A stretch of 59,510 bases of DNA, filler included, from Catajapyx aquilonaris (taxonomy: Eukaryota), in the NCBI GenBank assembly GCA_000934665.2. It is 3 parts of 3 records of this genome, joined end to end, with 100 filler letters (N's around TTAATTAATTAA, not from the genome) between each part and the next. Parts side by side here need not be neighbours in the genome. Positions count along the whole stretch, not along the records: positions 19,916 to 39,652 come from JYFJ02006397.1; 2 more parts are not named here. One strand, given 5' to 3'. The translations under genes were made by a program, and so were the position numbers. Below, piece by piece: positions 15,601-52,927 of the stretch; position 1 is the stretch's first letter, and each line of letters opens with the position of its first letter. Below the pieces are notes generated by a model. It worked only from the letters and a program-made list of their open reading frames with translations, had not been told where the DNA came from and made no database searches.

Positions 15601-18600
15601 ACTTGAGCTTGCGGGGGGTTCCTCGGGTTCAATCGACGACCTCCATTGGCAGAGAGGTGAACGAACACCGTGCTCCACCCTAATCATTTGTCGGGAAAAT
15701 AGAGGATGCCATTGGCAGAGTTTTTTTTGGTTGCCGGGTTTCCAAACGGAACAGAAGAGAGTGTGTACTCATGTCCCGATTGTCGTCATATCGGACGCCA
15801 CTTTGTCCTAGAGGGCTTTTCCGGAGAGCGGAAAGAGGGACAAACAGGACCTGTAATGTCTGATGGATGCATTCAACTCGACAGTGAAGGCACCCAATTA
15901 TTCAGCATGAAAGTTCCATTTTGATTTTGATAGACATTGCTGGATTATTTGTTCATTCGTTCATTCAATGGATTTATCTTATTTAAGTTGGTCTGCCTGC
16001 AGCAACAGCAACTTTTTATAATACTTTTGATGTGTTGAAATGTGTTCGTAATTTTTTTGGGGTCATTTGAGATTATGATGGAGAATTTGTATTTTGGTAG
16101 GCTGCAGGCCGACCACCTTAAATAAATAAAGCCATTGGATATTCATAAATATTACAGATTTTAATGCTGCACTTTTTGGGCTTGAAGTCTACGGTCCTGA
16201 TTTTTTTTAAATCACTTGAACTAGGTGATCCAGCAAACCGCAAAGTGTGTTGGCTCCAGGTCTTGTGCCCTCAGCTGCCCTATTGTGAAGCCGGTAAACG
16301 AGCTGGAAAGCTCCAGCCTGAATGCAGAGTGTCGATTGATTCCAGGATTAGCTCTGTAGCCTGCTGATGGCGACAGTCACACCGCCCTGCCATTGAATAA
16401 CAGGCACTGGCCCTTTTTGTGGGGGCTTGGCCTCCACTCTCCGATATAAGTCAACCCTGTGGGTAAAGCCTCTCAGGGGATTGCCTTGCAAACTAGCCAT
16501 TCGGATTGTGTAGCGTGTGACATCTTTTAAGCTCATGAATCGGAAAAGCTGGTTCTATTTTTAAGAAAATATCTATAAAGGATGCGATACTGCGCGTGTA
16601 CCCTGAGGTAAGGCAAACCCCAGCTGCAGAGTTTGGTAACAAAGTGTTATCTACAGAGGTTTGTTCATGTTGCAAAGTCCATTGCAATCGTCCCTGGCAG
16701 GCACTTGCAAGTTCTATTCAACCCAAATAATTATCTCGGACAACCCACGGTGCTTACTATCTCTCCGCAACAAGCATCTCTTTACTTCCTGCAGGCAAGA
16801 ACACATCTTCTGCAAACCCATTATCCCACTGGCACAAAACGGTGCTAGATTCATCTCACTTGTAATCAATGTACAGCCGGATTACGACTATTAATCCCAC
16901 ACTGCTTTACATGCAATTGCGAAATGAAATTCAGCATTTTGATATCGATGCTTCCAAAATGGTGAGTGGTTTTGCTGTAGGTTTTAGGTCCGTACATCTC
17001 TCCAGCGATATGATCCTAACGAAATAAACGAGGGTTCCTTCCTGGCTCAGCCGTGACGGGAAGGTTTCCCCAAATGGATTCGAGCCGAGATGTGTGTCTC
17101 TCTCTGTTGGAAAAGCCCCTTTGGCTAGATGAGAAATAGATGTGGGAGCCCACGATGGATGTGTCCTTCTGCACAGAGGACACCCCAAGCTTTTGGCAGA
17201 GATGTCCCTCAGGCCGTCCATTGAACTTCGCCTGAAAGAGAGGAGGGGAGGCCTTGTGTCTTTTTTCGACAGTCTTTGCCAAAAATTTTTTGGGGTTCCC
17301 CCTTCCAGCACTGGCCATTGGCTTTTGACAGCTTGCGGGCTACACATTCTTGCACTCAGCTACTGACATCTTGCCAAAGCCCCAAGTGGTGAATTCACTC
17401 TATAGAAACCTGCTCTAGTTTGTATCACATTCCTATGTTACAGACTAATCATTTAATTTAAGCGCTGCAATTAATCGATATACCATCAGCGGTGCAGGTT
17501 TTTTGAGCATATTCGGATAATGCGGTCAAACAGTGTAATATTGGATAGCCAATGCATAACGAGGGAAAGTTCTAAACCAGATCAATATAGCTCTGCCACA
17601 GGAATTTTTATCCGCAGAAAATTCGAGTTTAAAGCCCTAATAACACTATACAAGGCTCGCAGTCTTGTCAAAAAAATTCCATCACAGGATACAAATCTGG
17701 TGAAGGAATAATTAAATGCAGCATCCTTTATGATCCTGCCAACTGTAAAAAAAATACGTTGATTTTTGACTGCTACTTGAGATTGGGAGTGGCACTGCAA
17801 TAATTCTGGTCTGTCTGCGAGTTTGTCAGAGCCCATTTCGCAGTTGCCAAACTTTTAGAGAGTTCCAGTTCCCGACTGAACCATAAATTCCATTTCCCTC
17901 GCTCGCTTCTTGTCAAAGTCCGAAGTGACCAGCAGTACCTGGAGGGGGTCCTAAGCCTGATCCTTAGGACCCACTTGGGCATGTCAGAACTGAGAACTGC
18001 AAGGCCCCTGATGTGGGTTTTCTCCTCAAGACTCTTACCAATTTTATTGCTCTTGTGAAAGTTCAGACTGGACCTTTTCCCCGTGTACAGTATCCTGTAA
18101 CTAGGAGCTGCTGATTTGGATTTGAACTATACGTCAAGTCAATATTGATCTTATCATGATCATGGATAGTAGAACACACACAGGAGTAGAGAAATTATTT
18201 TCACGAGTTTGCATACTCGGTGCTATGTTCATTAATATTTTCACACTGCACTGTACTGATTGTAGTTTCAGGCTGCTAATCTGGGTGGTATCCCGCCATG
18301 GGCCGATACTATAAAACCGGCAGGAACTGCAGTTAAATCGCAGTTTGGACCCGGAATTACTATCCGTTGGTTATAAAATCTTGCAGATACACACGCTTAT
18401 CTGAAGTCGCTTTTTGAAAAATGTTTTGTGGTCTTCAGCTTGCAGGCAGATTCGATTCGGTGTTCAGGCCATCTTCGGTCCGTCTGACCCTCTGTTGGGG
18501 TCACACATCCAGTCAATTTGTGATGCCCTGGACATACCTCACCTGGAGGCTAGGATGGACTCTGAGCCTCACTTCAAGGAGTTTTCCATCAACCTGCATC

Positions 18601-19811
18601 CTACACAGGACCATCTCAACCAGGCTTTCAGAGACCTCATGGTCTTCCTCAATTGGACCAAGGTCGCCATACTTTACGAAGAGGACTTTGGTACGTTTCA
18701 GAAAAAATATGTGAACAAATTAAATATTTATCAAATTTTTCGACTCGTTTCCAGGTTTGATCAAGCTGAGAGATCTAGTCCGCAGCCCGCCTTCCAAAAA
18801 CATGGAAGTGTATATCAGACAAACAAGTCCGGCTAATTACAGATCCACGTTGAGGGACATGAAGAGGAGAGAAATTTTTAACATCATAGTTGACACCAGT
18901 CAGGACAAAATGTACAATTTTTTTCGATCCGTAAGTGCAGTCGGCATTATATAGTTTGCATACAACACAGTAAAACGGCTGCAAATAATGATGCAGTAAT
19001 GATAATTATGAAAGTGTTGCCAAACAAGGTGTAAAATAAATGTTGGAGATAATCTAGCCATAATGAGTAATAAATGGGTTTTGAATTGTACTTGCAGCAC
19101 GAATATCATTACGTTCATGAGGGTCATTATTTGCAGACAGTGTGTACGGTACGCTGGCTATTACGGTGTTTCAAACGTTCCACTAGCTGGCAGTGTTAAT
19201 TACAAACACAGTTCTGCTGGTGTCATTCGGACAAATATATGTCGTAAACATTGTCTCATTTTCTTACAGATTCTTCAGCTTCAAATGAATGACTACAGAT
19301 ACCACTATGTGTTCACAACATTTGTGAGTACATTTTGTTTCCTAATATTTTCCTTAGAACCTAGAGCAATGGAATAAATACATTATGAAAGAGATGCATC
19401 GCAATTTCAGGATCTGGAAGTTTTCGACTTGGAAGACTTCAAGTACAATTCCGTGAACATGACTGCTTTTCGTCTGGTTGATTCGGAACACGCCAAAGTA
19501 CGAAACATCCTTCACGCCATGGAAAGGTTTCAGCCCATCGGACCCAGCATTGTGAATCGATCGGGAATTATTCAGGTGAGGGTTGGACACGAGATGACTC
19601 GATAAACCTGACATTTCCTTCCATTTCGTTTCATCCATTCGATTGCTTTTTTTTCCAGGCCGAGCCAGCTATGGTGTTCGACAGTGTGTTTGCTTTTGCG
19701 AAAGGTCTGGAGTCCCTAGATGGAGGCCATGCCCTACGACCTGGAAACCTCTCATGCGACGACGAGTTGCCTTGGAACGACGGTCTCAGCCTGTACAACT
19801 ACGTCAGTGCT
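6619..19811 (+). CDS. Ionotropic glutamate receptor, kainate-type; 5' part only (signal peptide and amino-terminal domain), truncated by the assembly linker
   Basis: In-frame GT-AG exons 6619-6841 (...VVLANALAPHVLGLPPVIRL-G), 10063-10224 ([52 protein letters not shown]), 18439-18690 (ACRQIRFGVQAIFGPSDPLLGSHIQSICDALDIPHLEAR), 18755-18930, 19270-19323, 19411-19575 (DLEVFDLEDFKYNSVNMTAFRLVD), 19659-19811. All splice phases match. Motifs are typical of insect kainate-receptor ATDs. The start ATG is uncertain (6619, 6634 or 6682). Confidence 0.93.
14616..14691. repeat. 36-bp tandem direct repeat (2 copies) in a receptor intron
   Basis: CGTTTATTATTCTGAATATATAGTTTCTATGTTTGA at 14616 and 14652. Confidence 0.9.
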
Positions 19812-19915: not shown

Positions 19916-20343
19916 GTACACTACTTTTCATTCCCACATTTTTATCTTCAAAAGCTCAAAAAGCCCTTTTTAGGGTGGGGGGAAAGAGAGATTCCCAAGG
20001 GATGGCGCTCTTAAATAGTTTTTAGTCATTTCAGACCCTCTTAAATACCAGACATTTCTCCTGGACAGAGAACAGAGTGCAATTCTGTCCGGACATGTCG
20101 GGTGAATAGCAGAATGTCCTCCATTAGAGGGTGTCTTGACTTTTTCACGCAGTAACCATCCAAATAACATGCTGAACCAAAAAGTGTTTTTTTTTTTTAA
20201 ATTGTTGGATGCTGATGGTGTACCAGTATTGCCCTTGTTTGCTGAATTTATCCCTGAATTGAGGTCCATAAAATTGAACCAGGTGACACACCCTATCTAT
20301 TCAGCAAGCAGGTAAACAGCAATGCTAAGCTAGGATAACTCAC

Positions 20344-21245
20344 CTTTTTAATATGCTGCTATAGAGGGAAAGTACATTTGGATCCTGAGTCTGCTCACTT
20401 ATCACATTTATAAGTTTAAATAGTAAACCTCCAATGGCCTCCACCACTCTACAAGGAAAACCAAATGTATCATAATCTCGGTTAAATTGACTTAAATGAA
20501 GTGACACTTGAAATAACTCAACATGAACAAGTTATAAATGATGAGTTACTTCTTTGCTGTCAGAGCCTTTCTTTTGGCCTTTGCTTCCAGGACTGCCACT
20601 GAGTTGCACTTGACCGTCAACTTCTTCTCAGTCATTTCAGCCACTTGCCATGCTTCAGTCAACTTCTTCTCCAAAACTGCCATCTCTTCTCTCAGCTGTC
20701 CTATATCCTTTTCCATGGTGTCCACCTCTCGAGTCAAGTTCTGGACTTGGTTCCTCAAAGCAAACACATCTACATCTTCTCCTCCTACGTGTGAACGGTG
20801 AAGTTTGATCATGCTTCGCTCATACGCTCTAGCCCGACATTGAGGGCAAGAGCGAGACCTGATAAATGAAAGGGAATAATGGCAGAGCTATACATTGCAA
20901 AGGCATGCGTCATACAATGCAAATAAGGTTATCATCTGCCCAGGTTTATAACCATCAATGTATGTGACCAGTTTTATCTGTGAGTTTTACTGAATTTATT
21001 AATTAGACTGTGCAATGTTTGTGAATTATTGTATTTATACTGACAAATCACATTCAGTTAATTCAATATTGCAATGAAATTCATGATTAAATAAACACAC
21101 AGCTAAGAACAAAAACACTTTTAACACACCTTTCAAGCCACTGAAGCAGACAGGCATGGTGGAAGATGTGCCCACAGCGTATGGTGTACATGTCATCAGA
21201 TTCGTCAGTGAACAGTTCGTAACACAGAATGCAACCCACCCTCAT
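20344..21245 (-). CDS. TRAIP/NOPO-like RING-finger and coiled-coil E3 ubiquitin ligase (3' end uncertain)
   Basis: Exons 21245-21130 (MRVGCILCYELFTDESDDMYTIRCGHIFHHACLLQWLE-R), 20858-20550 (SRSCPQCR followed by a coiled coil) and 20448-20344 (VVEAIGG...QTQDPNVLSLYSSILKR). Phase-2 junctions are consistent. An N-terminal RING followed by a coiled coil is the TRAIP architecture. Further exons may follow. Confidence 0.75.
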
Positions 21246-21367
21246 CGTTGGGCCACTTCTTCTCAAAAGGAGAGGTTTTCTAGATCCCGTTGCCAGCAGC
21301 TGCTGAAACCTCACCAGAAAACAGCAAGGTGCGAATCACACAACTTTCAAGAGACGACAAGAAGGAA

Positions 21368-21561
21368 ATATGCCAAGTCTCTTTTGAACTTTGGACTGGA
21401 ATGTCTGGAAATGCTTCTCTCCCAACCGTGCCTCGGACACATATTTATGTCAACATGAATATTGTGGTGCTCACATTTCTTTAATACAAACTGTGCAGTA
21501 ACATTCATGTGATAAACAAACCTCTGTATTCACAGATTTAAAACGTTGCCCACCTTGCGGA
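21368..21561 (+). pseudogene. Decayed inverted copy of the TRAIP-like RING exons
   Basis: CQVSFELWT (vs CILCYELFT), frameshift, PCLGHIFMST*ILW (vs RCGHIFHHACLLQW; TGA at the Cys position), then after the acceptor TTCACAG (21535) FKT/CPPCG (vs SRSCPQCR). Confidence 0.6.
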
Positions 21562-22144
21562 TATACAGAGCACTAGATAATTTAATGTCGAGGCGGGAAT
21601 GTACAAGGTGTACATTACAAATGGGAAAATGCAAAAAAATAAAGCCATTCCACACCATATAAGCCACGGTCCAAGCAGTTGAGATTATTATTTATGCCTA
21701 AAGTTTTCCTCTTGCCACTGGCCATTGTGTACCATATGTAGCCAACAATCATGCAGGATTAAATGTCTGCAATTATTATTGTTGTATCACGCAACGTTTT
21801 TCAAATACAGAAGGTCGATGATCTGCCTGTCAATCAAGGCGAAAAGGATTTTTGAAAAATACCGTTGAGGAATTGAAGTGCGTACGTAGGATATATCCAG
21901 ATCCCCCAAGGCCAATTGGTCCATTTTACGTCACGAACAAACTTGGGCAATTGTTTGCGTCATACCAATTATTATAACAGCGCAGGGAAAAGGGCCCGGA
22001 CCAAAAAGGCGATAATTATTATTCGAACGGTTTTGGCTGGTTGCGGCCGAGGTTTGGATTTTTTCCCCCCCGTTCAACCTGATATCTGATCGAGTTATGG
22101 AAGAGTGACAATTGAGCAGACCTGACGTAACCAGACGTCCTTCG

Positions 22145-22275
22145 GTCATAAACACGTGCAGAAATGCTTCCTCGATTAAACTACCTGTCAGTCCCCCAAT
22201 AATAATCTGCATTACTCTGACAATCATTTTCCTCATGGTTATGACCTATGACTCATTCCTCTTCAGAGGAAAAAG
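22145..22275. repeat. Diverged ~130-bp direct repeat, copy 1 (upstream of the FPPS-like gene)
   Basis: GTGCAGAAATGCTTCCTCGA-TAAACTA...TTACTCTG-CAAT...TATGACTCATT..TCTTCAGA shared with 25087-25225. Confidence 0.8.
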
Positions 22276-23348
22276 ATACTGTAACAAGTGGCGTTATTCT
22301 TCCAAATATGACTTAGGCCTACGCAATGAGCTTAACATGTCATGAAATACTACTAGTTTTTATATTTGCAGCTTCCTTCACAGGTGTCAAGTGCGCCATG
22401 TCGTGCTGAGCCATTATAAATGAACGCAATAAATTTCTACCACATGTAAGTTATTTGCGAATTATGATTTTTTTTTCTATTTGATTCGTTCGACTGGGAT
22501 ATAACTGTAATCTAACCCTTTATAATCAGTGGTTTTTCTGGATACCTGACGTAGATTGGATTCTCCTCCCAAATGAAGAGGACGTGATCGACCAGTCCCA
22601 TTCCAGCAGTTTCAGCAGATCAACACATCATAAGTTGCAGGTACGCACTAATAATAATTTATTACATATTTACTTGTACTTGTATATACATATCATTTTT
22701 ATTACCTGAAATATTTCCACAAAGGAAACCGACGAGTGCGGATGTAAATTCAGTCTAAATGACTATAAGTCAGTGTCTTATTTTTATGATTTGCGAACTA
22801 CGCGAAAAAAACCAGCCTTGCAAAAAAAGCATTTGGCGAGAATGGATTATACTGTAGGAAGGCTGAAAATCAGTCACAGCTTGATCAAAATTGCATTAGG
22901 AATTCTGGTTTTGAGTGGTATTTTTTTCAGAAAGTTTAGTTACGTAGTAACGAATAACCCATCACTCAAAATGGGGGAAAAGGCATTGCAAGGATTCTTC
23001 ATTATAAAAATAGCATATTCATAATAATTTATGTGACAATGATGTGACAAGGAGGAAGTTTCAGAGATGTTGGGTGAAAGTATTAGTAGCCTATATTCGC
23101 TATACCATGTCAGAGATACGCAATTTTGCAATAATATCTCAAAAGTGACCAAAGTGCTGGTAATTTCATTTCAAGCATGATATGAATGGTAAATAAAATT
23201 AGCTTTTACGTAATAAAACCTGAAGAGACATGTAGCAAAAACCACCTCAGATTTCGCCATTGACATAGGGTATATAATATTTCAATTCGTTCTGCATAAT
23301 ATTCCGATTTGCAGGTTCGGACGGACTTAGTGTGTTGCCATACACTAT

Positions 23349-24750
23349 ATGTGGAACTACCTGATCCACACTTTCTACTACTGGATATTGTCAGCATCAA
23401 ATTTTCTAATCCATCGACGCAATTTGGAGCGCAAAGAGTAAGTTCGGGCGTTGTAAGGTTTGGGATATTTTGCTGACAAAAATTTGAAATTTGAAGCATG
23501 AGTTTGCCAACTGCCAAATCAATCCTGGGAGAAGATCGCCAAAAATACAGATCCATGTTTCCTGAAGTGGCTCACGACTTGAGTCAACTGGTCCAGAACG
23601 GAAGCTTCAATGAGGAGTCTGCATGGCTTCAGAAGATGCTGGAGTATAACCTTCTGGGTGTGAAGATGACAGGAGGAATGATACTTCTGACAGCCTACAG
23701 AATCCTGGTTGACAGCAGCAAACGAGATATGAAACTGGCTCATGTGATGGGCTGGTGTGCAGATCTGGTAAGTGTGTAGCCTACAGAGTAATACACTTCA
23801 TAATAATTATATTGTAACAGTAACACCCGCAAAAAAGTTGCAGGGAAGTATTATGCTGGTGGATGATATGATGGACGGAACAGAGACACGAGGAGGTCAG
23901 CCTTGCTGGTACAAATTGGGTCAGGTGGGTCAAATGGCAGCCAACGACGCTATTTTTCTCAACACTGCAATCTACGCTATGATGAAAAAGCACCACAAAG
24001 GACACCCATATTATCTAGACTGCCTCGAAGTCTTTCACTGGGTAAGTTGGGGACCACATAACATGCATATTGAACATACGGTACATGTTTCTGCAGGCAA
24101 GTTTCAGGTCTAGTGTAGGACAGGCCCTGGACATGCTGACCATTGGTCCAGACTCCAGGCCCAGACTGGAACTGTTCACAGAGGACAACTACTCGGTTCT
24201 GGTGAAGAACAATACAGGATGTGCACTGTTTGTGGCTCCAGTGGCTCTTGCAATGTACATGGCCGGAATCAGGGACAAGCAAGTACACATGCAGGTGGAG
24301 AAAGTGCTTCTGGATATTTCCAGGCGTTTCAAGGCACAAAACGACTTCATGGATTGCTTCGGGGACGTTGAGGTGACTGGGAAGAATGCGAGTGACATCC
24401 AAGGAGGAAAATGCTCTTGGTTGGTGGTCAATGCGCTGAAGATTGCTGATGAGGAACAGAGGAAGGTTTTGCAGGTCAGTCGCAGAAGTGTCAAGATTTT
24501 TCGCACAAAATATTAACTTTCCAAAATTATGTTTCAGGAATGTTATGGAAGTGACGATCCAGTCAAAGTCGCAAAGGTTGTGGACCTCTACGCAAAACTA
24601 GAGCTGCCTCGTTTACATGCAGAGTTTCAAGACAAATCTCGATTGTCCATACTTGAAGATATTGAACACTTGCCTTCCTGGGAGTTGCAAGCATTGTGCA
24701 AGACAGTAATGGACATTATCTACAATGGAAAATGTTCGGGCATTTATTAG
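23349..24750 (+). CDS. Farnesyl diphosphate synthase-like (trans-IDS fold) protein with altered active-site motifs; candidate IDS-type terpene synthase
   Basis: Exons 23349-23437, 23497-23767, 23838-24041, 24097-24474, 24538-24750, giving ~384 aa (354 aa from the ATG at 23498). FPPS landmarks: LEYN, GWC, FARM DDMMD (23862-23876), GQPCWYK, GQALD, SARM NDFMD (24340-24354), CFGD..VTGK..SDIQGGKCSWL. Confidence 0.9.
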
Positions 24751-25086
24751 TGACAGGGCCAAAGAACTATAAGCTCTTTAGATAGGGCATTATGTAGATC
24801 GCTTGTCAATTTTCTGTAGGCCTACTAAAAAATTAAGGGAGCAAAATTGTGCATATTAGACAATCCAAAAAAAAATGTTCTGAAGTTGTCGATGACCATG
24901 CACTTCCTGAGTAGTGTACAGCATGCAGCTTTGTAAATGCAACAAAAAGTACTTCTTAATAAATTAGGCATTTAATAAATAACTCCCACTTAATTAGTTT
25001 TAACATTAAGATAATGTCTCTGGGGACATTTAAAAAATAATTAATAAACACGGAAAAGAAGTGCATACACACGGAAAAACCTTTCT

Positions 25087-25225
25087 GTCATATAAATATG
25101 TGCAGAAATGCTTCCTCGAATAAACTATACCTCTCAGCCCGACAATAATTCGCGTTACTCTGGCAATAACTGAGTATTTGCTGAGTATGACCTTGTATGA
25201 CTCATTTTTCTTCAGATGAAAACAA
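25087..25225. repeat. Diverged ~130-bp direct repeat, copy 2 (downstream of the FPPS-like gene, upstream of COG5)
   Basis: Aligns by eye with 22145-22275. Confidence 0.8.
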
Positions 25226-25520
25226 AATAAAGCCTTTACAGTCGCGTGTTTGGACAGATGATTGTGTTGATGTTCAGATTGTGCTGCTATCAAGTTTTTC
25301 CACAATTTTTTTATTTAAAATATTTAAAAATGCCATTTTGCAACTTTCAAAAAAGTCCCGCTGTTTTTTTGCCCTAAAAATGATGGCAATAGTTAGTCGA
25401 TAGAGTACTTACAACAGATGGAAGATTCCAGTAGTTACCGGTTGTGTCGATACTGACCGTCTGCTGATGTGTCTTATTTTGTTGAACTCGGAACAAAAAT
25501 TTGCAGAGAGAGAAAATAAA

Positions 25521-28122
25521 ATGGGCTCAAAGGCAGGCGAAATGGACCAGGAGGAAGATCCGGCCAAGATCATGGAACAAGATGGTAATAATAATAATAA
25601 TATTAATAAATTTGTGCTAATAAATTTCTTCTTAAAGCGTTGTTCTCCGAGTTCTCCGGGAATGACTTTGATGTGCGGACACATGCAAGCCGGATTCTTC
25701 AGGGCGTCGCGGTCTCCCAGCAGTTGTCCAAATTGTCTACGGGACTGCAGCAGTTGGATTACCTTCTGCACCGTCACGTCTGCTCGCATCATCAGGACCT
25801 TCTGTCGCAAGCCACAGGGATCGGACGGCTTGAGTCCATACTTGCAACAATGCAGACGCACCTCCAATGCCTGCTGTCGTCGGTCGAGAGGCTCAGAGGG
25901 AAAGTGGTGGAGCCGCACCAGAAGATACGCTCGCAGACGCTGATGCTCTCGAGGTTACAGCAGGCGTGCGAGGTCCTCCGGAGGGTCGGAAGGGTCATGT
26001 ACCTCTCGAAAAGGGTGCAGGTTATTGGAAGCGGCGCGGGGGAACTTGCGAAAGCGGCTCAGGCGTTGAACGAACTGGAGCAGCTGTGTGGCGATGCGGA
26101 CTTGAACGGGATCCATGCGGTTGAGGCGGATCATCGTATGGCAAGAGCCAAGAGAAGCGAGGTCGAGAGGCAAGCGCAGGCAATGCTTACGCAGGGAATG
26201 GAATCCAGAAATCATGCTCAGGTCGGAGCCGCACTGCAGGTAAATATGCGATGGTTTACTTATACGCACAAGTCACATATGTAATCTTGCAGGTGTACTA
26301 CAATTTGGATGCACTAGAGCGTATTATCGATTCGACGTTGGATAAACTTGTTAATGACATACGGCGCGGAGTGTGCGACGCTTTGGACGTCCAAAAGTTG
26401 GATCCGCGTCCGGCTTTCGGGCCTGGGACAGCCCCTGGCCGTGCCGCTATTCCTGTACCGGGATCGTCGTCCACGTTACGTTCAACGCTGTGGGCTAGCC
26501 TCGAACGAGTGACGGAGCAGGTGTATGCATATGCGTCGCAAGTACATCTACTGCAGAAATGCCTTGCTAAGCAGGACCAGTCGACGCGAGTTCCATTCGC
26601 ATCACGGATTAAAAACCAGGACGTTTCAGCCGCATTTTGGGATGCTGTTGGGTTGGCAACAACATCCGAATTTAAGCGTGCGGCTGAAGGATCTGGATTT
26701 GTGAAGCAGACGTTGGAAGTCGAGTACCCAAAGTTGCTCCGGCTGTACTCGTCGCTCTGGGAACGTATTAACACATTGCATTCAGGTTCAGACGCCATTC
26801 TGAGAGCAACCTTGGCTCCATTTGAGGAGGCGTACCTCTCGCGTTCCCTCTCCCGGATGCTGGATCCGGTCAACCTGATGTTTTCCGGCGATTCGCTGCC
26901 GACGAAAGAGGAGACTGAAGCCGTAATTAGGACAATCACGAGCGAGCTGAATGTTTCAGGTGCAGACCCGGTCCTTTACGAACATGTCTGCGATAATGTG
27001 TGCAAAGCCGTCCGCCTCTTTGCCACAAGGTGAGCCATCTTGGCTTGCTGCTTGTTGCGTATTAATATTGCATTTCAACATTGCAGGTGCGACCAGTCCC
27101 TGGTGCGAGACAGCGAGGCCAGCCAGGTGATCGGCCCTGCGACTCAGGGTCAGCTTTTGAACGCCAGCATCGCTAATTTGCTCTGGGCATTTCACGGAAG
27201 CCTTTCGAAGGTGGTGGCTTCCGGTGGCGGTGGATCGACACCCATCCCGCCTCCTCCGTCTCTCTCCGAGGCTCTCGACTTGCTCCCTGCCCTCATCCGG
27301 ACTTCGATGCAGCCTCTTCTGTCATCAGTTGGCGACGCCATCGAAGCCATCATTCTCACCATGCACAAGGAGGACTTCTCAGGGTAAGAATCGCTGATAG
27401 GTTAACGAGGCGGTATTTGACTTCCTACATTTGCAGGCCTGCCAAACATGATGGATCGGGAAAGCCTGAATCTCCGTGCTCGCTGTACATGCGTGAGCTT
27501 CAGAGTTTTATTTCGAGGGTATCGTCCGACTATCTCTCCCTCTTCTTGTGCCAGGATATTGTGTTTGAATGGTACGTAGCTTTTGCAGTCTTTTGATTTA
27601 CTTTGTTAATTGATGTTCACTTGCAGTGTGCATCCGCTGGCGTCTCGCTGCCTGGATCTGTTTGTACGTCATGCGTCGCTGGTTCGTCCTCTTGGTGACG
27701 GTGGACGTCTGCGTTTGGCTGCCGATTTTGCCCAGGCTGAGCTTGCAGTCTCGCCTGTGTGTCGCCGCGTGGGTGACCTCGGCATTCCGTACAGAGTTCT
27801 CCGTGCGTTCAAGCCATTGTTGTTTCAAACTCCAGGCCACGTGGTGGAATCCCCTGCCTTGCAAGCCATACCGGCATCGTTGGTGCTTCATCACCTTTTT
27901 TCAAGAGCACCGCCAGATCTACGTTCGCCGCATCAAAGTGCAGGGTGGTCGCTAAGCAGGTATTCGCAATGGCTGGACGACCACCCAAGCGAACGGGAAC
28001 GTCTAATGCTTCTGAAGGGCGCACTGGAGGCATACGTAAAAGACGTGAAGAGTCGACATGGGAAAGAATTCGCCGATGTTTATCCCGTAATGGTAAAGCT
28101 GCTTCAACGAGCTCTTAAATGA
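25521..28122 (+). CDS. COG5: Conserved oligomeric Golgi complex subunit 5
   Basis: Exons 25521-25584, 25638-26239, 26293-27029, 27087-27383, 27437-27571, 27627-28122 with matching phases. Motifs: [99 protein letters not shown] at 28146. Confidence 0.95.
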
Positions 28123-28819
28123 ACCGCACAAGTGTAAACAATTGAAATAAAACATGACTGTTTTGCAAACATTGGTTTATGTAAATATGACTTCTTCTGT
28201 ACATGTCACGTTTCTATTTCCAAACACCCAATTCCATGCTACTTTTTGGGAGAAAAAACATCAAACTCAGGTACAACATTCACTCGCGTAAGTATCAATG
28301 AAACTTGCAAATAAAAAGTGAACGGAATGCAAAAAACCGGGGATGGAAACTACATCAGCTGTCGGCTGAATTTGAGGCGAGCAATATGCTAGTCCTTGTT
28401 TAAAAAAAAAAAAAAATTGTAGGTAGTCCGTTATAGCCACGTGTTAGCACACTCAATAGTCGAGAAGAGAATAATTACAAAACAACAACATTAGACCTGG
28501 ACGAATGGTCCCTACGATGCACTTTCAAACAATGCGAAACTTTCAATAATCCCAACGACACAACAGTTCAAACCCAATACCGAATTCACATTGGGTCCAA
28601 AAAAAAAAAACACGAAAGTAAATAAAACAACCTTGAGCCCAACGAAGAAAAAAAAACAACGCTATGCCCTCTAAGAAAAAAACGAACACGATGTCAAATA
28701 AACTTGTATTGGGTAAATTCTCTCTTTTTTTTTCCTCTCCTCAATAGAGATGAGAAGTGCACAGAATGTCCAAGAAGAAAAGTAATGCAGCAAAGTCTCA
28801 TCCGTCGTCATCTCGGGAT

Positions 28820-30218
28820 TCAGTGATTGAGATTGCTCATCTGCAGGAATTTTTCATAGTCCTCGAAGGCCTCGTCGTCCATCTCGTCACCGCCAAGGGA
28901 CAAGTTGCCAAAGTCCACATCGCTAAGTACACAGGAAATTGAATTAATTGTTCAAAACAGTAAGACGATCAGGACGTACCTGCCCTCTTCTTCCTCAGGA
29001 TACTCCTCCTCCGGATCGCCTCCTTGTAAGCCCTTCAGGAAGTCCCTTTCCTCATGGCTCAGTGCCTGTCCATCCGGCCCGTACATGACGCCGTCTCCTC
29101 CGCTGCTTACCTCTTGCCTATCTCCGCCTCCGCCCACGTCCCCACCCCTTCCCCAGTTGCAACCCCGAAGTTCAATCACCTTCGTCACCATATCCCGCAT
29201 CAGGCGGTCGCTCCAATCCGGACTATTAACAACGGCCTTTGTGTCCTCCAGCAGGGATGACAAGTTGCATTTGTCCTCCTCCATCTGGCAGCCGCACAGC
29301 TGGAAAAGAGTGGGCGTAACGTATGCTAGTTTGGATGCAATTTTCTCACCTTGAGTGTCTGGCAGATTGTTTTGATTCCGTCCTTGTCTGGTTGCGAGGC
29401 TAGAAGCGTGTGCAGGAGGGCCAACAGCCCCTGGGCCAGCACCTCAATCCTCTGTACGACACCGCCACCTGCCCGCACATCCATCTGCATGTACAGCTCG
29501 GCCATGAACATCGTGTAGCCTCTCAATCGCTCCGGATCAATCGCCTCCCTCCGCTCATGTTCCTCCTTGCATCTATTGGAAGAAAAGTAAGATCACGCAA
29601 CTGCCACCGTTAAACACGTCTCGGACGCTACCGTTTGAGGATGGCCTGTCTGAATTTTCCATCCTTCTGCCCTGCCCTTGAGAGCGTCTGGCAGAGTCGG
29701 GCGCCAGTGTAGCGGAAGTTTGTCTGCTCAACGGCCTGCTCGAATATCATATGCACTGCATGTCCAAGTGCCTGCGATCGGAACGTTAATTAAGCATGGA
29801 ATGTACAGTAATGTGTCGGTCATACCTCAGGCGAGTTGGACCTCCCACGAAATAGCTCCACGAAAGTAGACGAAAAGGAGTCGAAGAACCCCGGCTTCTT
29901 AGTGAGCTCCATCACCATATGGCTGACTTCCATCAGAAACGCATTGTCCACTTCCGACAGAACCACCGGTTCCTCTTCAGGCGGTGGAGGCTCGTAGTAC
30001 GACTTTGGGTAGAACTCGACAGCTTCTGCGGACAGGTTTGAGTTCACGACGGACGCTGCAGCTGGTCCGTCTCCGGATCCGTCCAGGCTTGGAAGGAAGG
30101 CTGTGGGCTGTGCGGACGGGATGCGGAGACCCACAGGATGAGGGTCCGGCATATCTTGAGATAAAGAGTGGGCCCGTCCGCGCCCCTGTCGTGGACACTG
30201 GTCACCGAAGCCGTCCAT
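28820..30218 (-). CDS. PAIP1: Polyadenylate-binding protein-interacting protein 1
   Basis: Exons 30218-29826, 29771-29632, 29572-29350, 29299-28980, 28922-28820. PAM2 motif SNLSAEAVEFYP; MIF4G-like NFRYTGARLC and MFMAELY; ELRGCNWG; YGPDGQALSHEERDFL; acidic tail DEMDDEAFEDYEKFL. Confidence 0.92.
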
Positions 30219-30239
30219 GACCTCAGGTCAAACCTTTAA

Positions 30240-31100
30240 TTTAGAACACTACTATTAGGTCACTACTTACTATCAGGCCACTATTAGAACACTACTATTA
30301 GGTCACTACTACTAGAACACTACCGTTAGGTTACTATTTACTATTAGGCCACTATTAGGTCACTACTATTAGAAGACTACTATTAGGCCACTACTGACTA
30401 TTAGGCCACTATTAGAATACTACTAGGTCACTACTATTAGGCCACTATTTGAACACTACTAGGTCACTACTATTAGGCCACTATTAGGCATGAGTGCCCT
30501 TTTGTCCTTCGTCAGAGTCAAAAGACTCTTTTGTTCAATGGGGGCCCCTCGCGGTGATGCAATAATCGGAGAGAAGTGATACACGGCTGGGAGTATGTTC
30601 TACTATTAGGCCACTCTTAGAACACTACTAGGTCACTACTATTAGGCCACTATTAGAACAGTACTAGGGTCACTACTATTAGAACAGTACTAGGTCACTA
30701 CTATTAGGCCACTATTAGAACACTACTAGGTCACTACTATTAGGCCACTATTAGAACACTACTAGGTCACTACTATTAGGCATGAGTGCCCTTTTGTCCT
30801 TCGTCTGAGTCAAAAGACTCTTTTGTTCAATGGGGGCCCCTTGTGGTGATGCAATAATCGGAGAGAAGTGATACACGGCTGGGAGTACGTTCTACTATTA
30901 GGCCACTATTAGAACACTACTATTAGGTCGCTCTTAGGACACCCCGCTTGATGTAACCCTTTTGGTCCAGTCCGCATTCAGTACAGTCACGCCACTACTA
31001 TTAGGCCAAAGAACACTACTATTAGGTCGCTCTTAGGACACCCTGGTGGATGGAACCCTTTTGGTCCAGTCACGCCAGGCCACTATTAGAACACTATTAT
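30240..31100. repeat. Complex minisatellite (ACTACTATTAGGTC / ACTATTAGGCC / ACTATTAGAAC units) with higher-order duplications
   Basis: 11-14-bp variant units. A unique ~112-bp segment is duplicated at 30489-30600 and 30781-30892, and a second segment (GTCGCTCTTAGGACACCC...CCCTTTTGGTCCAGTC) at ~30927 and ~31026. Confidence 0.93.
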
Positions 31101-32243
31101 GTATGAATGACCTCAGGTCAACCTCCAACTGGCTTTTTAACTTAGACCACCCTCTGAGTATATGCTACCAGTTCCAACCGACCCAAGTGTTGAGGTGCCT
31201 GCAGTGGCCTACTAGAGAGGACCCGAAGCCACGTTCTCCTTTTCCTTTCCCTTTCCTAGCCTCTTCTAGTGGGAAAGAGAGAGAGAGAAAAAGAACAAAC
31301 GATTGTTCCGGCTTGGACGACAGAGACTGTGCAATAGGGACGAGTCCCTGCTCACTTCACGACAGATGGCGCGTGCACACAAAAGGCGGCCATATTTGAT
31401 GCTCCTCAACGCGCGGTTTTTTCATGTCATTCTTTTGTTTACAAGAGAAAATAATGCGGACACATTTTCGTGACTTTTTGGGGATGCACGGGGATGATAA
31501 TCCACACCTGGATAACAAGTGTAATGAAAATTATGGACACATCACAGTAAAAGCATTTTTTATAAAGACATCCAGTACAGCGAACATGCATAGCAGAGAG
31601 TGCCACAATTCAATTATTTCATTGCTGTACAATTCACCTCCTCATTGAAATGAATTGCCGGTTGATAGTTCCTGACTGAAGGTGCATTTACATATCAGCG
31701 ATTTGATGCGCCAAGGCTGCAATTAACTGGGTTACTCAGCCTCGGCGAAGACTTCGATCCGCTTCGCTCGTCAAATTGCTCACGTGTAAACGCACATTGA
31801 ATTGTGGCCATCCTTTACAGCTAGATTTCACAACATGCAACTCGCACGAATTAATACCCCTAACCATTGCACAGAATCAGAAAAATACAATCGCAACTCC
31901 ATTAATATACTTCCCACAAAACATTTTGAAAATACAGTTTGTGACAGAAGGGTTAAAAACTACACAGTTTTTGGTCATTGATTCGAATACACATATTTAC
32001 AAAGTGCGACATATAAGAATACTTATTGTAAATTAATTGCGATGCATTATTTTGTACTTATTAAAGTGTCTTTTTTTCAATAATAATAATAATTAAACAT
32101 TGTGCGCAACATTTGAAATTTCGACACTTATGGCACCAATTAATTAGGCTGCAGTTCCACTTTGTGATTAAAACATTTAGTGATTATGCCAAGATAATAA
32201 AAAAATAATATAAATGAGAGTATAAAAAATTGTTGCTGAATTA

Positions 32244-34976
32244 TTAAGCATTGGATGGCATATTTAGTTGCTCCATTTCCACTTCCTCTTGAGGTTCCCT
32301 GCTCTTCAGACTTTTCGTGGCCTCAACCGTAATGTACTTGTGCAGTGATTCGGATGCGTACATGTCGTGTTCATCAACACCACTGTTCTTATTGTGATCT
32401 TCCATGAAGCACAGGAAGAGAGTATCAATTACCATCTGAAATGATAAAGTTAACATACAGAAGCCGTAGTAGGATGAATCAAGAGAAACTTTCAATTATT
32501 ACGTACACCCATCTACAACAAAAGGTAAATACATTAATTACCTCATACACAGAGAAGACGCAATGTGCCACAAAGTAAGCAAATATGGTGGCCAGCAGCA
32601 CCGGAATGGCATAGAAGTGAAGCTCCTCATCTTGCTTCAGCACGAGAAGAGACGTGATTCCAATTATACCGGTCACAATGCACTTTCCCAAGAAGAGAAT
32701 GAAGTCGCCTACGCTGTTGATGGCAGCCACTTGAAGGATATTCGCTGTTATGGTTTCAAATGCCTGCAGAAACACACACAATCAGGAGAGAAAATACACT
32801 GCCAATAACAATGTGATGTCTCGACATTCCGTAGGTTTTGAATTACTTACAATTCCAGCTGCTGTGCAAAAATTGCATCCTTCGATGGCGATGACAGTGT
32901 ATGCATTGTGGTTGAGGTATTTAATGAACTTCTCCAGCATGTAGAAGCAGCACCAGCAGCATTTGAGGCAGCAGTTCACACATTTGTTGTCTTCCCCGTA
33001 CTGCTTCAGCCTTAGAAGATAATTTCATAAACATTACTTTCAAGAATATTGTATACATTTTGCAATCATAAGCTAACCTGAGTTGAATGTATGTGAGAAT
33101 GATCCTTGGTATCTTGAAGAGTGTAATGAGGAATGATCCTTTGGCTACGGAGCCAAGGTGATACACTACCATCTTCGAGATTGACTTTCCAACTGCACAA
33201 GACACTTCAGACTTGTCTCTGGAATGTAGGCGAACATTAACAACTCCTCTTCGAATGTGAAATAATTTTACTCACTTGGTAAAGTACCAGTAGGACACAG
33301 CACCTGCTATGACCATCTGCTGGCAGGCAAGTATGAACTGCGACACCCACAAAAGGGCTATGACGTAAACCCACCAAAAATATTGCACCCAAGTGGGGTC
33401 CAATGCTATCAGGTTGAATCCCGTTCCTCCAAGCGGACGAGACGTCTGATTCGCTTCTTGTTGTTCTCTTTTGTTCAGCACCGGAGAACTTGTACTCGAC
33501 TCCAACTCCATAGCGCCATAAGTTGGTTTAACCCCAGTGTGAGCTGCGAATATTTAAACAGGCATTAACGAATCAATTCCCGTGCCCAGGAACCTGTTGC
33601 TCGTAAAATCAAATTTTCCCATAAAATTAATTCAAACGACTTACTCGCAGTAGCCAGCCAGACCATGACCAGCATCCAAAATATGAAAAATGCAAAGAGC
33701 ACTACGATGGTGATGAACGGCTGCAGCAAGAGAGTCCTCATATCCTTGAGGCAGCTGCTTGCCTCTTCGAACAGCTTGATCACAATGGACACCCTTGATC
33801 TCAGGACTATCACCAGAATCAGGAGGATCACGGTGACGATGGTCACAATAATTGAGAACGCCAGAAAGGCCCTCTCATTCTTAGCCGCAGTTTCCAGGAG
33901 CTGACTCTGTGGGATCAGGTCAAGCTTGTACTTGATTTCGGCGTAAGTGACCCACAGCAGCACGGACAGAACGGTTCCAACTATTGGCACTGCGATCATG
34001 AATCCCCAGGCAAACATTGTCGCCAGGTAATGGATCACCTCAACCATCAAAAAAGACACAACTGAAATAATGCAGGTTTAATTAGGCGTTTAATTGCGAA
34101 ACAAACATTATGTACTTACCTAAAGCACATGCGGCAAATGCAAGTAAAAGCCACTTTGTTCGATGCAAGTCACTCAAAACCTGCTGCACAACCTCAATTC
34201 CATTCAAAGTCCCATAAACACGAGACATCACTCCTTCAGTCAAATCCGTCACAGCTCTGGGCACACACCGGTTGATCACTGGAACGCTGTCGAGTTGAAA
34301 CAAGTGTAAGCTCGAAATTACAGTACAGTACATAATTAGGCCATAATTAGACTGATTTTTACCTATCATAAACTGGTAATGGCGGGCATGGCCCCAGTGG
34401 ATTGTGCAGTAAATCGGTAATATTCTGCTCCGACGACCGATTCCTCCTCATCTTTTCCAATTCCTCCCCGTAATTGAACCCATATGTGCACAAGTTGACA
34501 CCCGTCTCCTCGATGAACGCCTTCAGCTCATCATGACTGTTTATCCTCCGATCCGGACACTTCTGAACGCAAACCTGCAAAGCCTGCTGCATTTCCTTCA
34601 GATCAAAAAAGAAGAGGTACGACATATTGTTCATATCCATCCCCGAGTTGTTGAGTCTCCCCAGCCGCTCGTTCTTCATCCCGCAAACATTTCCGAAGCT
34701 GTCATACCCGTGTACCAACCGCTCCGGGTTGCCATACACAAATGCAAACGCAGCAATAAAGATCTGCAAAATCAATACATTTCTGACAGATGAGTCATCA
34801 CCAATAAATCAATATCGACTGACAGCTTATGACATTTGACCATAATTTGAGTGTGTCGTTCTACTGACCAGTAGACCCCAGAATAAGACGTAGACGATGA
34901 GGCAGGGCAAGTCTGTGCATCCAACAGGACGAGTTGGAGTTGCATCCTCTGGAACTACTTTGGAACAGCAGCCCAT
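32244..34976 (-). CDS. CTL1: Choline transporter-like protein 1 (SLC44/CTL family)
   Basis: Exons 34976-34869, 34763-34363, 34286-34120, 34061-33645, 33543-33276, 33218-33078, 33010-32851, 32763-32542, 32435-32244. Motifs: [103 protein letters not shown]. Confidence 0.95.
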
Positions 34977-35450
34977 CTTTTTTTTCTCTCTCTCGTTCTT
35001 CTCACCTCGAATTCCACTGTGAATCCCCGATGTTTTGGACTTTTAGATTGCGTCCAAACACAGGGTTAAAATTTGGGATGGTTTCCGCCCATTTTTAGTA
35101 GCTGCCTGTTATTAAAAAAGTGATTAAAAGTGGAAAAAATTAATTATGTACAATACTGAGCCGCCATCTTGGTTGAGATGGAAGGAACGGACCGGAACCG
35201 GCGAACCAATTCGATAATTACATTGCCGGTAAGCCGAACTTGCACCGTAATCACAATTAAACCGGATTAAAATCAATCTGGTTTAATTAATATTTTAAAA
35301 TAAATATCTAAATCCCCCCCACATTAAATAAAATCTGTTAGTAATGATGGGAACGGACTGGCGGCCATGTTGGGGACTGACACTAGGAACGTGGAGTCAC
35401 ATGCTCCTTTTCGTTGAGTTTAAATGTTTAATTGACATTAATTGCGAGCA
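34977..35450. promoter_or_regulatory. Probable bidirectional promoter between CTL1 and the RPA34-like gene
   Basis: Divergent start codons 475 bp apart; YY1/Pho-type CCGCCATCTT at 35161 and GCGGCCATGTT at 35361. Confidence 0.5.
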
Positions 35451-37158
35451 ATGTCGTTTAAACGGAGAAGGCACGACGTTAGTTCGTCGGATGAAGAGTC
35501 GGATGAGGGTCGGACAGCTAGATCCACTGCAGAAGGGCAGGCAAATCAGGTACATACTATGCTTACTGATCAAAAAAGCTATCAAAAATTAATTAACTTA
35601 CAATTAATTAATTAACCTTCACTTGCGGATACTCCGAAGCTGGCCACAACTTTATGTGCGTCATATTATGGAAATGCACTTTTGCCTGTTTGGTGCAATG
35701 CAAAAGTTCATATTATTAACTGACCGGTTAATGTTCGCAGGTAATTGTTGACCCGAAGTACCTGAAGGAGTATGAGCCCAGCAGTAGGAAGCCGACCCTG
35801 AGCCTGGATGAAATTGGGTCTGACGATGAAGTGTGGGTGATGAGGTGTCCGGATAGTGTGAGTATAATATTCACGACATTGTCGCTAGAAAATGGTTCAA
35901 TACGTAAATTCATTTCAGATCAAGATTGAGAATCTTCAGAACAGTGCGTTTAATTTCAAGTCGTCAACTTCGTCCATCTCTGTCGCAAGGCAGACTTACG
36001 AGTGCAGAGTGATTCCAAAAGAGGATCAAATGTCGTGCTTGCTTCCGTCGTCAAGAGATGGAAATTTGCAGTTGGGTAGGCACCGTGCAGCTGCGTATTT
36101 TGAAGTGCGTTGTTGTTAACGTTCTGTTATTTTGCAGCCAATTTGAATGTGTCTGGATATGTGGAGATAACAAAATCAATCCCAGTGCCTCCCATAAAAT
36201 TCATGGAAATGCCTGAAGATGACATTACGTCACTGCCAGAAGGACTGAAGTTGCGGCATCCGATTTATGGCCTAGGTAGGAATTTACAGGGCATGTCATT
36301 GGAAATAGAATAGTCTCTTCTCTAAAGTCTAAACTATGTATCCGACAATCCGAGTACATTTTGTGTACATCTATATTTTGGGGGCATCCTGAATTTGTAG
36401 TTTCACTTTCAGCCTTTGACATGTTTATTATTCTGGATTTTCTGTTTAATTTAGACATTGATGCCCTGAGTCCTCGTAAGAAGAAAAGTAAGCGGAAGAA
36501 GATGAGCAAGGAAATGATGGATGAGTCTACTGAAAAGACTCCTAGTAAGAAGAAGAAGAAAAAGCGAAAGTCACGGCCACCAGAACAGGAGTCGTCAGAA
36601 GAGGAGTTGCCAGTTAAGAAGGAAAAACGAAAGTCCAAACTATCCGAGGAGGAATCACCGATTAAGAAGGAAAAGCGGAGGTCAAATCCAGAAGAAGAGG
36701 AAGGATCCAGTAAGAAGGAAAAGGGAAAGAAGCGAAAGTCACAGCCACCAGAAGAGGAGTTGCCAGTTAAGAAGGAAAAACGCAAGTCCAATCTATCTGA
36801 GGAGGAGTCACCTACTAAGAAGAAGAAGCAAAGGTCGAGCCTAGAATATAATGGTACAGAATTGGTCGAAGAAGAGCTTCCAACTAAAACAAAGAAGAAA
36901 AAATCAGGTGGTGAGGTTCACATCCCTGATGTTACTCCAAGGAAACGTAAAGCATCAGAACACGAAGCGATCGACACAGGAAAGAAGCGAAAGATTGAGG
37001 CAGAACCTGTAGCAGATGATGATGCAAAAGGTAAGAAGAAGCTCAGAAAAGCAAGAGCTGAGTCACCTGTTAGGGAGCAACCAAGCAGAGCTGTCAAAAT
37101 CAAGAAAGAACCGGAAGAGCAACCAAGGAAAACTCGAAAGGCAGCCAAAGGGCATTGA
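35451..37158 (+). CDS. RNA polymerase I subunit RPA34 (POLR1G/CAST)-like protein with a long Lys/Glu-rich tail
   Basis: Exons 35451-35549, 35741-35857, 35919-36075, 36138-36275, 36455-37158 with consistent phases. DDEVWVMRCP, CLLPS and LPEGLKLRHPIYG resemble the RPA34 N-terminal domain; the C-terminus is Lys-rich and low-complexity. Confidence 0.75.
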
Positions 37159-51975: not shown

Positions 51976-52000
51976 CACACTGGCTGCCAGGAGGAGTCTT

Positions 52001-52210
52001 TTAGGACCCAGCCCCATATGATGCTGGAGATGGCACATCTCCCTCGAAAGAGTCAGCACGACCCCAAACCTGGCCAGCCTGATATGCTGCTCGGAACATA
52101 TGTTGATACAAAGCAGCTGATGTGGGAGGGATTAGATGCAGTAGCTTGTTGGCCGAGGCAAACATATTGCGGCATGCCAGTGTAGGCGAGGTCGACCAGT
52201 TTTTAGAAAT
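52001..52210 (-). mobile_element. Fragment of a DNA-transposon protein, probably Academ-like (C-terminal region)
   Basis: IPPTSAALYQHMFRAAYQAGQVW...VPSP matches the LPPTxxALxQHxxRAxYQAxxW motif I associate with XPG-containing Academ proteins; family assignment from memory. Confidence 0.5.
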
Positions 52211-52339: not shown

Positions 52340-52790
52340 TCAAAGGGGCTGGGAGGAAACACGCGGATGTCGAGACTGCAACCACTTTCTGGTGTATCTT
52401 GCTCGGCGTTCCCTTTTTTGTTCTTCTAGGCGTTGGTTCTGCAGGCGGTCGAGATGTATTATTCGCGCAAATGTTCTGGTCCGGGAATGCGTGTGGACTT
52501 GAGGGTACTTTTCTTCCAGCACTTTCCTCAAGGTTGTAATTACGCCCCGCTTCCTGCTCGCAGAATCTCCATGCATCAGTGTAAAGGTCACCTCCTATTT
52601 CTTCACCATCTGCAAAAAGTCTTCTGAAGGTTCCAGCAACTGTCCCGTCCTGGACATGTGGGATACCCAGGTAGCTCCAGCACCTCGATGAGATGAGACA
52701 GGTGTTCCCAAGGTGACGTCCTCATTTCTGCAGCCGTGTGCCACGTAACCAGCCACAAATCTGAGGACTTCACCCTCCACCTGCTGGTCA

Positions 52791-52792
<2 letters not shown>
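52340..52792 (-). mobile_element. P-element/THAP9-like transposase C-terminal fragment (pseudogenised)
   Basis: VLRFVAGYVA...WVSHMSRTGQLLEPSEDFL resembles the P-transposase YIAGYV..W...SRGGL..PS motif; in-frame stop at ~52595. Confidence 0.7.
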
Positions 52793-52853
<61 letters not shown>

Positions 52854-52857
52854 GTCA

Positions 52858-52925
<68 letters not shown>
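52787..52925. repeat. (AAT)n microsatellite, duplicated together with a GTCACCTGA anchor
   Basis: GTCACCTGA(ATA)n at 52787 and again at 52854. Confidence 0.95.

Positions 52926-52927
<2 letters not shown>

Follow-up and report, generated by a model that had tools for sequence, protein, structure and literature searches.

The locus considered here raises the question of what becomes of a farnesyl diphosphate synthase (FPPS) when many of the residues that hold its second substrate, isopentenyl diphosphate (IPP), have been replaced in a gene that is itself intact. The gene lies on the plus strand at positions 23349-24750 of a stretch of 59,510 nucleotides (filler included) from Catajapyx aquilonaris (GenBank assembly GCA_000934665.2), referred to below as the window; the window joins three parts of three records, which need not be neighbors in the genome, and the gene is in the part from JYFJ02006397.1 (positions 19,916 to 39,652). 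It encodes a paralogue of FPPS which would, in the reading favored here and given about an even chance of being right, be an enzyme derived from the isoprenyl diphosphate synthases (IDSs) and resembling a terpene synthase (TPS). The substrate, the product and any activity at all are what we infer from the residue pattern described below.

The uninterrupted FPPS-family gene can be read in two forms. The short form starts at ATG 23498 and comprises four coding exons and 354 amino acids (aa), its 354 codons being followed by the sole stop, the terminal one. The long form starts at an in-frame ATG at 23349, within an exon at 23315-23437, and comprises five exons and 384 aa; splicing of this exon to base 23497 adds 30 residues, mostly hydrophobic and stop-free, and a stop precedes the open frame. 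It is the long form that reproduces the five-exon reading frame of 23349-24750, free of stops and frameshifts, reported in the initial annotation. Of the two start codons, the downstream one lies in the more favorable context (G at -3), and solved FPPS chains begin to align at about residues 9-12 of the short form. The coding exons extend over 23497-23767 (coding from 23498 to 23767; residues 1-90), 23838-24041 (residues 91-158), 24097-24474 (residues 159-284) and 24538-24750 (residues 285-354 and the stop), and the three introns between them are all in phase 0 with GT..AG borders. In an exon-wise Pfam search, PF00348 matched exon 2 at 8.4e-12 and exon 3 at 1.3e-25, and gave no match to exons 1 and 4 searched singly. 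The predicted protein is a member of the trans-isoprenyl diphosphate synthases (PF00348), in the FPPS subfamily.

The gene is transcribed and spliced at the predicted borders. Five public sequencing runs contain the stretch, none recorded as RNA; four come from the sample that is the possible source of the assembly (S1, study P1) and the fifth, X5, from a different sample and study (S2, P2). In X5, five contigs, all at least 99% alike, skip six GT..AG introns, three of them within the coding region, with joints at 22445>22555, 22634>23309 (+6), 23437>23497, 23766>23837 (+1), 24040>24096 (+1) and 24471>24535 (+3), the offset of the cut being given in brackets, whereas the DNA run X1 spans the stretch in one unbroken piece. 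Because its contigs are intron-less, X5 appears to be derived from RNA, so that the gene would be transcribed and spliced as modeled. The transcript has at least four exons in its 5′ untranslated region (UTR). The first one seen, at 22118-22186 with approximate borders, is placed by a loose-end consensus of X5 and X1 contigs that maps exactly to 22118-22147 and by a border at about 22186, where ACCT is followed by gtcagt; the others are at 22372-22445 and 22555-22640 (joints 22445>22555 and 22634>23309, both GT..AG) and at 23315-23437, the exon that holds the upstream in-frame ATG of the long form. The 3′UTR (24751-25133) ends near 25133, just past an AATAAA at 25118-25123, and X5 contigs cover 24535-24800 and 24867-25133. 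Contig depths in X5 range from 2.6 to 10.4 and are no reliable gauge of expression level.

Two further features of the transcribed region were observed. The long 5′UTR (22118-23497) carries several short out-of-frame upstream reading frames, for example MNAINFYHILDSPPK*, ahead of both start codons. A short direct repeat brackets the gene, with 22148-22224 resembling 25092-25167 (81% over 79 nt) and 22247-22273 resembling 25196-25222 (89% over 27 nt); its upstream copy lies in the first 5′UTR exon and its downstream copy holds the poly(A) signal region. Either the scar of a duplication or a repeat of the dispersed kind could account for it. A tblastn search of the window with the spliced model gave only chance matches (E >= 0.8) and found no second FPPS-like copy there.

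The residue pattern was examined by exon-wise alignment to solved FPPS chains, with numbering after 1zw5, and in an alignment of the spliced model with 115 relatives, these being the proteins of 320-480 aa among 193 search matches. All six motif changes listed in the initial annotation proved to be real in the chain alignments, the one in the tail by way of the R365 column. In coding exon 1 the region of the first IPP-binding motif (IBM-1) reads GVKMTGG (23657-23677; G70V and R74G, with K71 kept), compared with n-GKKNRG or t-GKKTRG in solved chains. Coding exon 2 has LQGSIMLVDDMMD...TRGG in place of LQA(S/Y)(L/F)L..DD.MD...TRRG, a region that includes the first aspartate-rich motif (FARM) DDMMD at 23862-23876, preceded by LQGSIM with S and I at positions -5 and -4, and TRGG at 23886-23897 (R126 kept, R127G). 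Coding exon 3 has VKNNTGCALF in place of VKYKTAF(Y)SF (KNNTGCALF at 24205-24231; K214N, Y218A and S219L, with T215 kept) and, in the second aspartate-rich motif (SARM), FKAQNDFMD at 24328-24354 in place of FQIQDDYLD (Q254K and D257N, with D258 and D261 kept); K271, D275 and K280 in the same exon are also kept. The C-terminal lid in coding exon 4 reads IIYNGKCSGIY (24715-24747; R365G, basic tail lost), with which solved chains align only up to IY. We take the canonical FPPS C-terminus to be a basic tail, in keeping with the R365 column, where the model has G and 101 of the 115 relatives have R.

Taken together, the changes are G70V, R74G, E107D, F112S, F113I, L114M, R127G, K214N, Y218A, S219L, Q254K, D257N and R365G, and the residues kept are K71, Q110, D117, D118, D121, R126, T215, F253, D258, D261, K271, D275 and K280. 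Arginine is present at positions 74, 127 and 365 in 106, 106 and 101 of the 115 relatives, respectively, and the paralogue has glycine at all three. The FARM had been described as kept, and DDMMD does fit the published expression, with D117, D118 and D121 unchanged; the replacement of the chain-length aromatics at -5/-4 by S/I was likewise confirmed, in columns where 59 and 91 relatives have F. The non-aromatic pair is not exclusive to TPS-like proteins, being S/L in IDS1 of the beetle Phaedon cochleariae, and long-chain IDSs are also without aromatics there. At the first SARM position, where the paralogue reads NDFMD, D occurs in 104 relatives and N in 10. Two of the changes are rarer still, K214N being found in one relative and Q254K in none, and neither occurs in the 16 proteins tabulated.

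A published framework for such patterns is the survey of Rebholz et al. 2023 (PMC10108439), which gives the FARM, the SARM and six IPP-binding motifs (IBM-1 to IBM-6) as regular expressions and predicts terpene synthases from substitutions at IPP-contact residues, with 126 of 430 insect sequences so predicted and Photinus among the candidates. The model passes the FARM expression, DD[ILMV][EFMQ]D, only and fails those for the SARM and IBM-1 to IBM-6. The IBM expressions were not retained as the sole test since they are too strict, just 15 of the 115 relatives passing the SARM and IBM-1 to IBM-5 and seven failing all six, and they were replaced by column-wise counts. For these, 16 IPP-contact positions were taken from Table 1 of the survey, the variable positions 72 and 73 and K367 being omitted. 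The model keeps six of the 16 (K71, Q110, R126, T215, F253 and K271, the last belonging to IBM-5), and the ten changes are spread over IBM-1, IBM-2, IBM-3, IBM-4 and the SARM.

The substitutions in the predicted protein are concentrated on the IPP site beyond what chance would give, a pattern unlike uniform decay. Among columns at least 90% conserved, 6 of 10 IPP-contact columns were changed compared with 4 of 30 others (one-sided Fisher p = 0.0074), K214N being counted among the four changed ‘other’ columns though it lies inside IBM-4; among columns 80% conserved the figures were 9 of 15 and 11 of 53 (p = 0.0054). At the ten contact columns, 93 of the 116 aligned rows (115 relatives and the model) were unchanged, and the model tied for the maximum of six changes; one of the tied rows, P0112, has gaps at N-terminal motif columns, where a gap was scored as a change. 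Overall, 44% of the residues (149/338) agreed with the family consensus, compared with 40% at the IPP-contact columns (4/10) and 87% at the other conserved columns (26/30), and the share climbed with column conservation, the least conserved bin giving 21% and the most conserved one 75%. This rise of agreement with conservation indicates that the protein is still under the general constraints of the family. Remodeled beetle proteins (31/40 and 34/42) have a profile similar to that of the model, and two canonical controls keep 40/40 and 40/41.

Characterized insect terpene synthases were compared with the model through their published descriptions, not by sequence alignment. Murgantia histrionica MhTPS, Phyllotreta striolata TPS1 and Lutzomyia longipalpis LlTPS are alike in the PF00348 fold, the retained FARM and derivation from FPPS by duplication, and also in having non-aromatic residues at -5/-4, lost basic residues in IBM-1 and IBM-3, and a changed IBM-4 and SARM. 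The replacements differ, the model having R74G and R127G where stink bugs have R74W and beetles an insertion in IBM-1 together with R127Y, as reported in PMC10108439, and the model also differs from the insect enzymes in keeping K71, Q110 and T215. Uncharacterized FPPS-like proteins from beetles (Leptinotarsa XP_023022105, Callosobruchus VEN50386, Photinus XP_031330513 and Pyrocoelia KAK5640093) show the same class of change at the same columns, the Leptinotarsa protein sharing S/I at -5/-4, S219L, D257N and R365G with the model. All four beetle proteins keep K214 and three keep Q254, Pyrocoelia having H; K214N together with Q254K is confined to the model among the proteins compared.

Homology to canonical type-I FPPSs (human 1zw5 and 4kpj, chicken 1fps) extends over the whole length of the protein, with exon 3 matching human FPPS at 2.4e-29, and the FARM, R126, D258, D261, K271 and K280 are shared with them. 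The model differs from these enzymes in its lack of the aromatic chain-length residues F112 and F113, of R74, R127, K214, Y218, Q254, D257 and R365, and of a DDxxD SARM, as well as in failing all six IBM expressions; its departures in the IPP-binding residues and basic lid are R74G, R127G, Y218A, S219L, Q254K and R365G. Phaedon cochleariae IDS1 (PDB 8a6u, 8a7b and others) was among the best solved matches to every exon except the last and resembles the model at positions -5 (S), -4 (aliphatic) and 73 (T) as well as in the NDF.D of its SARM. Unlike the model, it keeps the IPP pocket (GKKTRG, TRRG, VKYKT and FQIQ), and it is described in PMC10396970 as a working, metal-dependent, bifunctional IDS that makes geranyl diphosphate (GPP) and farnesyl diphosphate (FPP). 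Since Phaedon IDS1 aligns with QNDFLD, catalysis can go together with an N at the start of the SARM.

The sequence features by which IDS-type terpene synthases are predicted are present together in the protein, namely PF00348/FPPS homology, the FARM, non-aromatic residues at -5/-4 and substitutions at contact residues. In the mechanism proposed, an FPPS gene would have been duplicated and its product would still have the fold of a trans-IDS together with the apparatus for binding and ionizing an allylic diphosphate, represented by the FARM DDMMD, R126, D258, D261, K271, D275 and K280. Most of the residues that hold IPP in FPPS (R74, R127, Y218, S219, Q254 and the C-terminal basic lid) are lost, and Ser and Ile stand in place of the two aromatic ‘floor’ residues before the FARM. 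With the metal and allylic apparatus kept, the homoallylic site dismantled and the floor of the pocket opened, ionization of a prenyl diphosphate without condensation would be the most likely chemistry. The enzyme may bind GPP, FPP or geranylgeranyl diphosphate (GGPP) with Mg2+ and ionize it; as the pocket would be deeper and no IPP would sit where it could trap the cation, the carbocation would be quenched or cyclized, giving a terpene in the way that the IDS-type terpene synthases of insects do. Published experiments agree with two elements of this scheme, MhTPS being reported by Lancaster et al. (PMC6140472) to need non-aromatic residues at -4/-5 for TPS activity, and replacement of KKxR in the FPPS of the same bug, MhFPPS, being reported there to destroy its activity. 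A precedent for the choice of candidates by contact residues is LlTPS, which according to PMC10962984 was selected because it keeps 3 of 15 such residues (LlFPPS keeping 15 of 15) and which proved to be a terpene synthase.

Several observations weigh against the assignment of a terpene-synthase-like function. The IPP site has not been fully erased, as K71, Q110, T215, F253 and K271 are kept, and because the motif expressions are so strict, a failure to match them says little by itself. K214, which is kept by 110 of the 115 relatives and by every remodeled beetle protein compared, is lost here; this residue presumably helps to bind the allylic diphosphate, so that with D257N in addition the ionization step itself may be weakened. 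K254, which adjoins the SARM, may take over from K214 at the diphosphate. A word-index search with exon 3 found no close orthologue, the best identity being 50%, and the end branch of the model in the 30-row IQ-TREE phylogeny was long (1.6, compared with a median of 0.75). The window holds no terpenoid gene cluster according to a Pfam scan of 123 of its 130 stop-to-stop frames of at least 85 aa (the seven omitted overlap the FPPS-like gene), which gave just ANF_receptor, COG5 and choline-transporter-like domains. Loss at the IPP site is also less complete than in LlTPS, with 6 of 16 contact residues kept compared with the 3 of 15 given in PMC10962984. Remodeled IDS paralogues do not always work as expected, Phyllotreta striolata IDS2 being described in PMC10108439 as one with no detectable IDS or TPS activity, and PMC10960109 recording regular IDS activity in just 5 of 11 candidates tested from P. 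citri.

Part of this evidence is shared with other explanations. Retention of K71, Q110, K271, T215 and F253 would suit a protein that is still a prenyltransferase with altered chemistry, performing irregular head-to-middle coupling of the chrysanthemyl or lavandulyl diphosphate synthase type or acting as an IDS of unusual chain length, metal or substrate preference, as seen in Phaedon IDS1. Such a protein is quite unlikely in our estimate, even though the model resembles Phaedon IDS1 (S and an aliphatic residue at -5 and -4, T73 and N257) and exon 2 has among its top PDB matches 4kk2 (4e-18), a chain that is a chimera of FDS-5 monoterpene synthase and FPPS. A second diphosphate would presumably need a pocket with basic residues, and the model has lost R74, R127 and R365 along with the basic tail, whereas Phaedon IDS1 itself keeps R74, RR126/127 and K214; the KKxR result for MhFPPS (PMC6140472) points in the same direction. 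The Asn in place of the first SARM Asp bears on irregular coupling in two ways in the account of PMC10960109, where the change is proposed to matter for this chemistry but where a D-to-N replacement abolished the irregular activity of P. citri transIDS5.

The weakening of catalysis that K214N and D257N may bring about would fit a non-catalytic or regulatory partner, the alternative named in the initial annotation: a dead FPPS-like subunit that dimerizes with canonical FPPS or with a paralogue and alters what the partner makes. In favor of such a role, FPPS works as a homodimer, and there are IDS systems that are heteromeric; in the small subunits of plant GPP synthases, however, the aspartate-rich metal-binding motifs are lost, whereas here nothing is missing from the FARM and the SARM keeps two of its three acidic positions, the third being Asn. 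A purely structural subunit would have no reason to keep the three FARM aspartates, D258, D261, R126, K271, D275 and K280, and 26 of the 30 other conserved columns are kept as well. Pairwise combinations of the P. citri IDS candidates are reported in PMC10960109 to have left activities unchanged. We regard a partner of this kind as distinctly improbable. The long end branch (1.6 against 0.75), a best full-length identity of just 39.7% with no orthologue found among 1.84 billion representatives, and the low X5 contig depths (2.6-10.4, which are no measure of expression) could also be taken as signs of a drifting duplicate without maintained function, a weakly transcribed future pseudogene whose frame happens to be open still. 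An unconstrained copy so diverged should, however, hold stops or frameshifts, and the 354-codon frame is open with splice sites that are intact and used; nor are the substitutions uniform, since outside the IPP site the model keeps 87% of the conserved columns, while it agrees with the consensus at 44% of all columns and at 40% of those that contact IPP. Drift of this sort is therefore considered very unlikely, and a terpene-synthase-like enzyme is preferred to it.

The initial annotation had also proposed a phylogenetic check, together with a possible independent recruitment in this lineage. In an IQ-TREE analysis of 30 rows the model fell inside the metazoan FPPS clade (98/97) and there within a polytomy, so that membership of metazoan FPPS was supported and a finer placement was not obtained; its place within a FastTree phylogeny of 116 rows was likewise unresolved. 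Approximately unbiased (AU) tests rejected neither a clade with the remodeled beetle proteins (p = 0.40) nor one with canonical pancrustacean FPPSs (p = 0.35). The beetle proteins, whose end branches of 1.0-1.4 are similar to the 1.6 of the model, were not grouped with it in the tree, the firefly pair being joined at 100/97 (starred) and Leptinotarsa added to it at 87/93. The highest full-length identity, 39.7% over 340 columns, was to an FPPS of the mayfly Cloeon dipterum (P0003). A HMMER search of the 1.84 billion representatives found no close orthologue, with about 50% identity to the full exon 3 at best and one match below 1e-30, although two short fragments reached 52-54% identity to this exon. 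Named relatives with comparable losses at the IPP site were FPPS-like proteins of Callosobruchus, Leptinotarsa, Pyrocoelia, Photinus and Lutzomyia, in which the replacement residues differ.

An independent recruitment is plausible. A bolder form of it, which we hold to be rather unlikely, is that FPPS-derived terpene synthases, this gene among them, have expanded within one lineage of crustaceans or early-branching hexapods, independent of the cases in beetles, bugs, flies and butterflies, with an active-site solution of its own (K214N and Q254K), and that it supplies an undescribed terpene pheromone or defense chemistry. If a terpene is made, the gene would be one more case of animal terpene synthases arising from FPPS and would give a concrete gene for tracing the terpene signals or defenses of its host. 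A full-text literature search covering crustaceans and Collembola found no report of IDS-like terpene synthases in non-insect arthropods, and the host lineage is without a close relative among the proteins searched, for the FPPS paralogue as for its neighbor COG5. The practical value would be modest, the pattern being already known in insects, where the survey in PMC10108439 predicts it for 126 of 430 sequences.

The flanking genes in the window are housekeeping or neural. Directly downstream on the plus strand, a gene for COG5, with both its N- and C-terminal domains, occupies 25610-28119, its start lying no more than about 500 bases beyond the FPPS-like 3′UTR. Its product shares at most 43% identity with any protein found (38% among full-coverage matches), and the top named matches are from decapod crustaceans. 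This points to an arthropod host that is probably pancrustacean, so that ‘insect-type’ is an uncertain label in taxonomic terms. Pfam also identified an ANF_receptor (glutamate-receptor-like) exon at 18405-18833 on the plus strand and a choline-transporter-like gene at 32482-34077 on the minus strand. At 36280-37155 on the plus strand lies a K/E/S-rich open frame of 292 aa with repeated KKEKRKS-like units and no Pfam match, a composition that suggests an exon of a low-complexity nuclear protein. The minus strand at 50380-52131 carries long open frames, one of them containing the YADD box that characterizes reverse transcriptases; these frames gave no Pfam match at E<=1e-4 and are probably the remains of a decayed non-LTR (long terminal repeat) retrotransposon. 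Close to it, at about 52600-53080, is a long trinucleotide microsatellite, which in the minus-strand frame reads as runs of I and Y.

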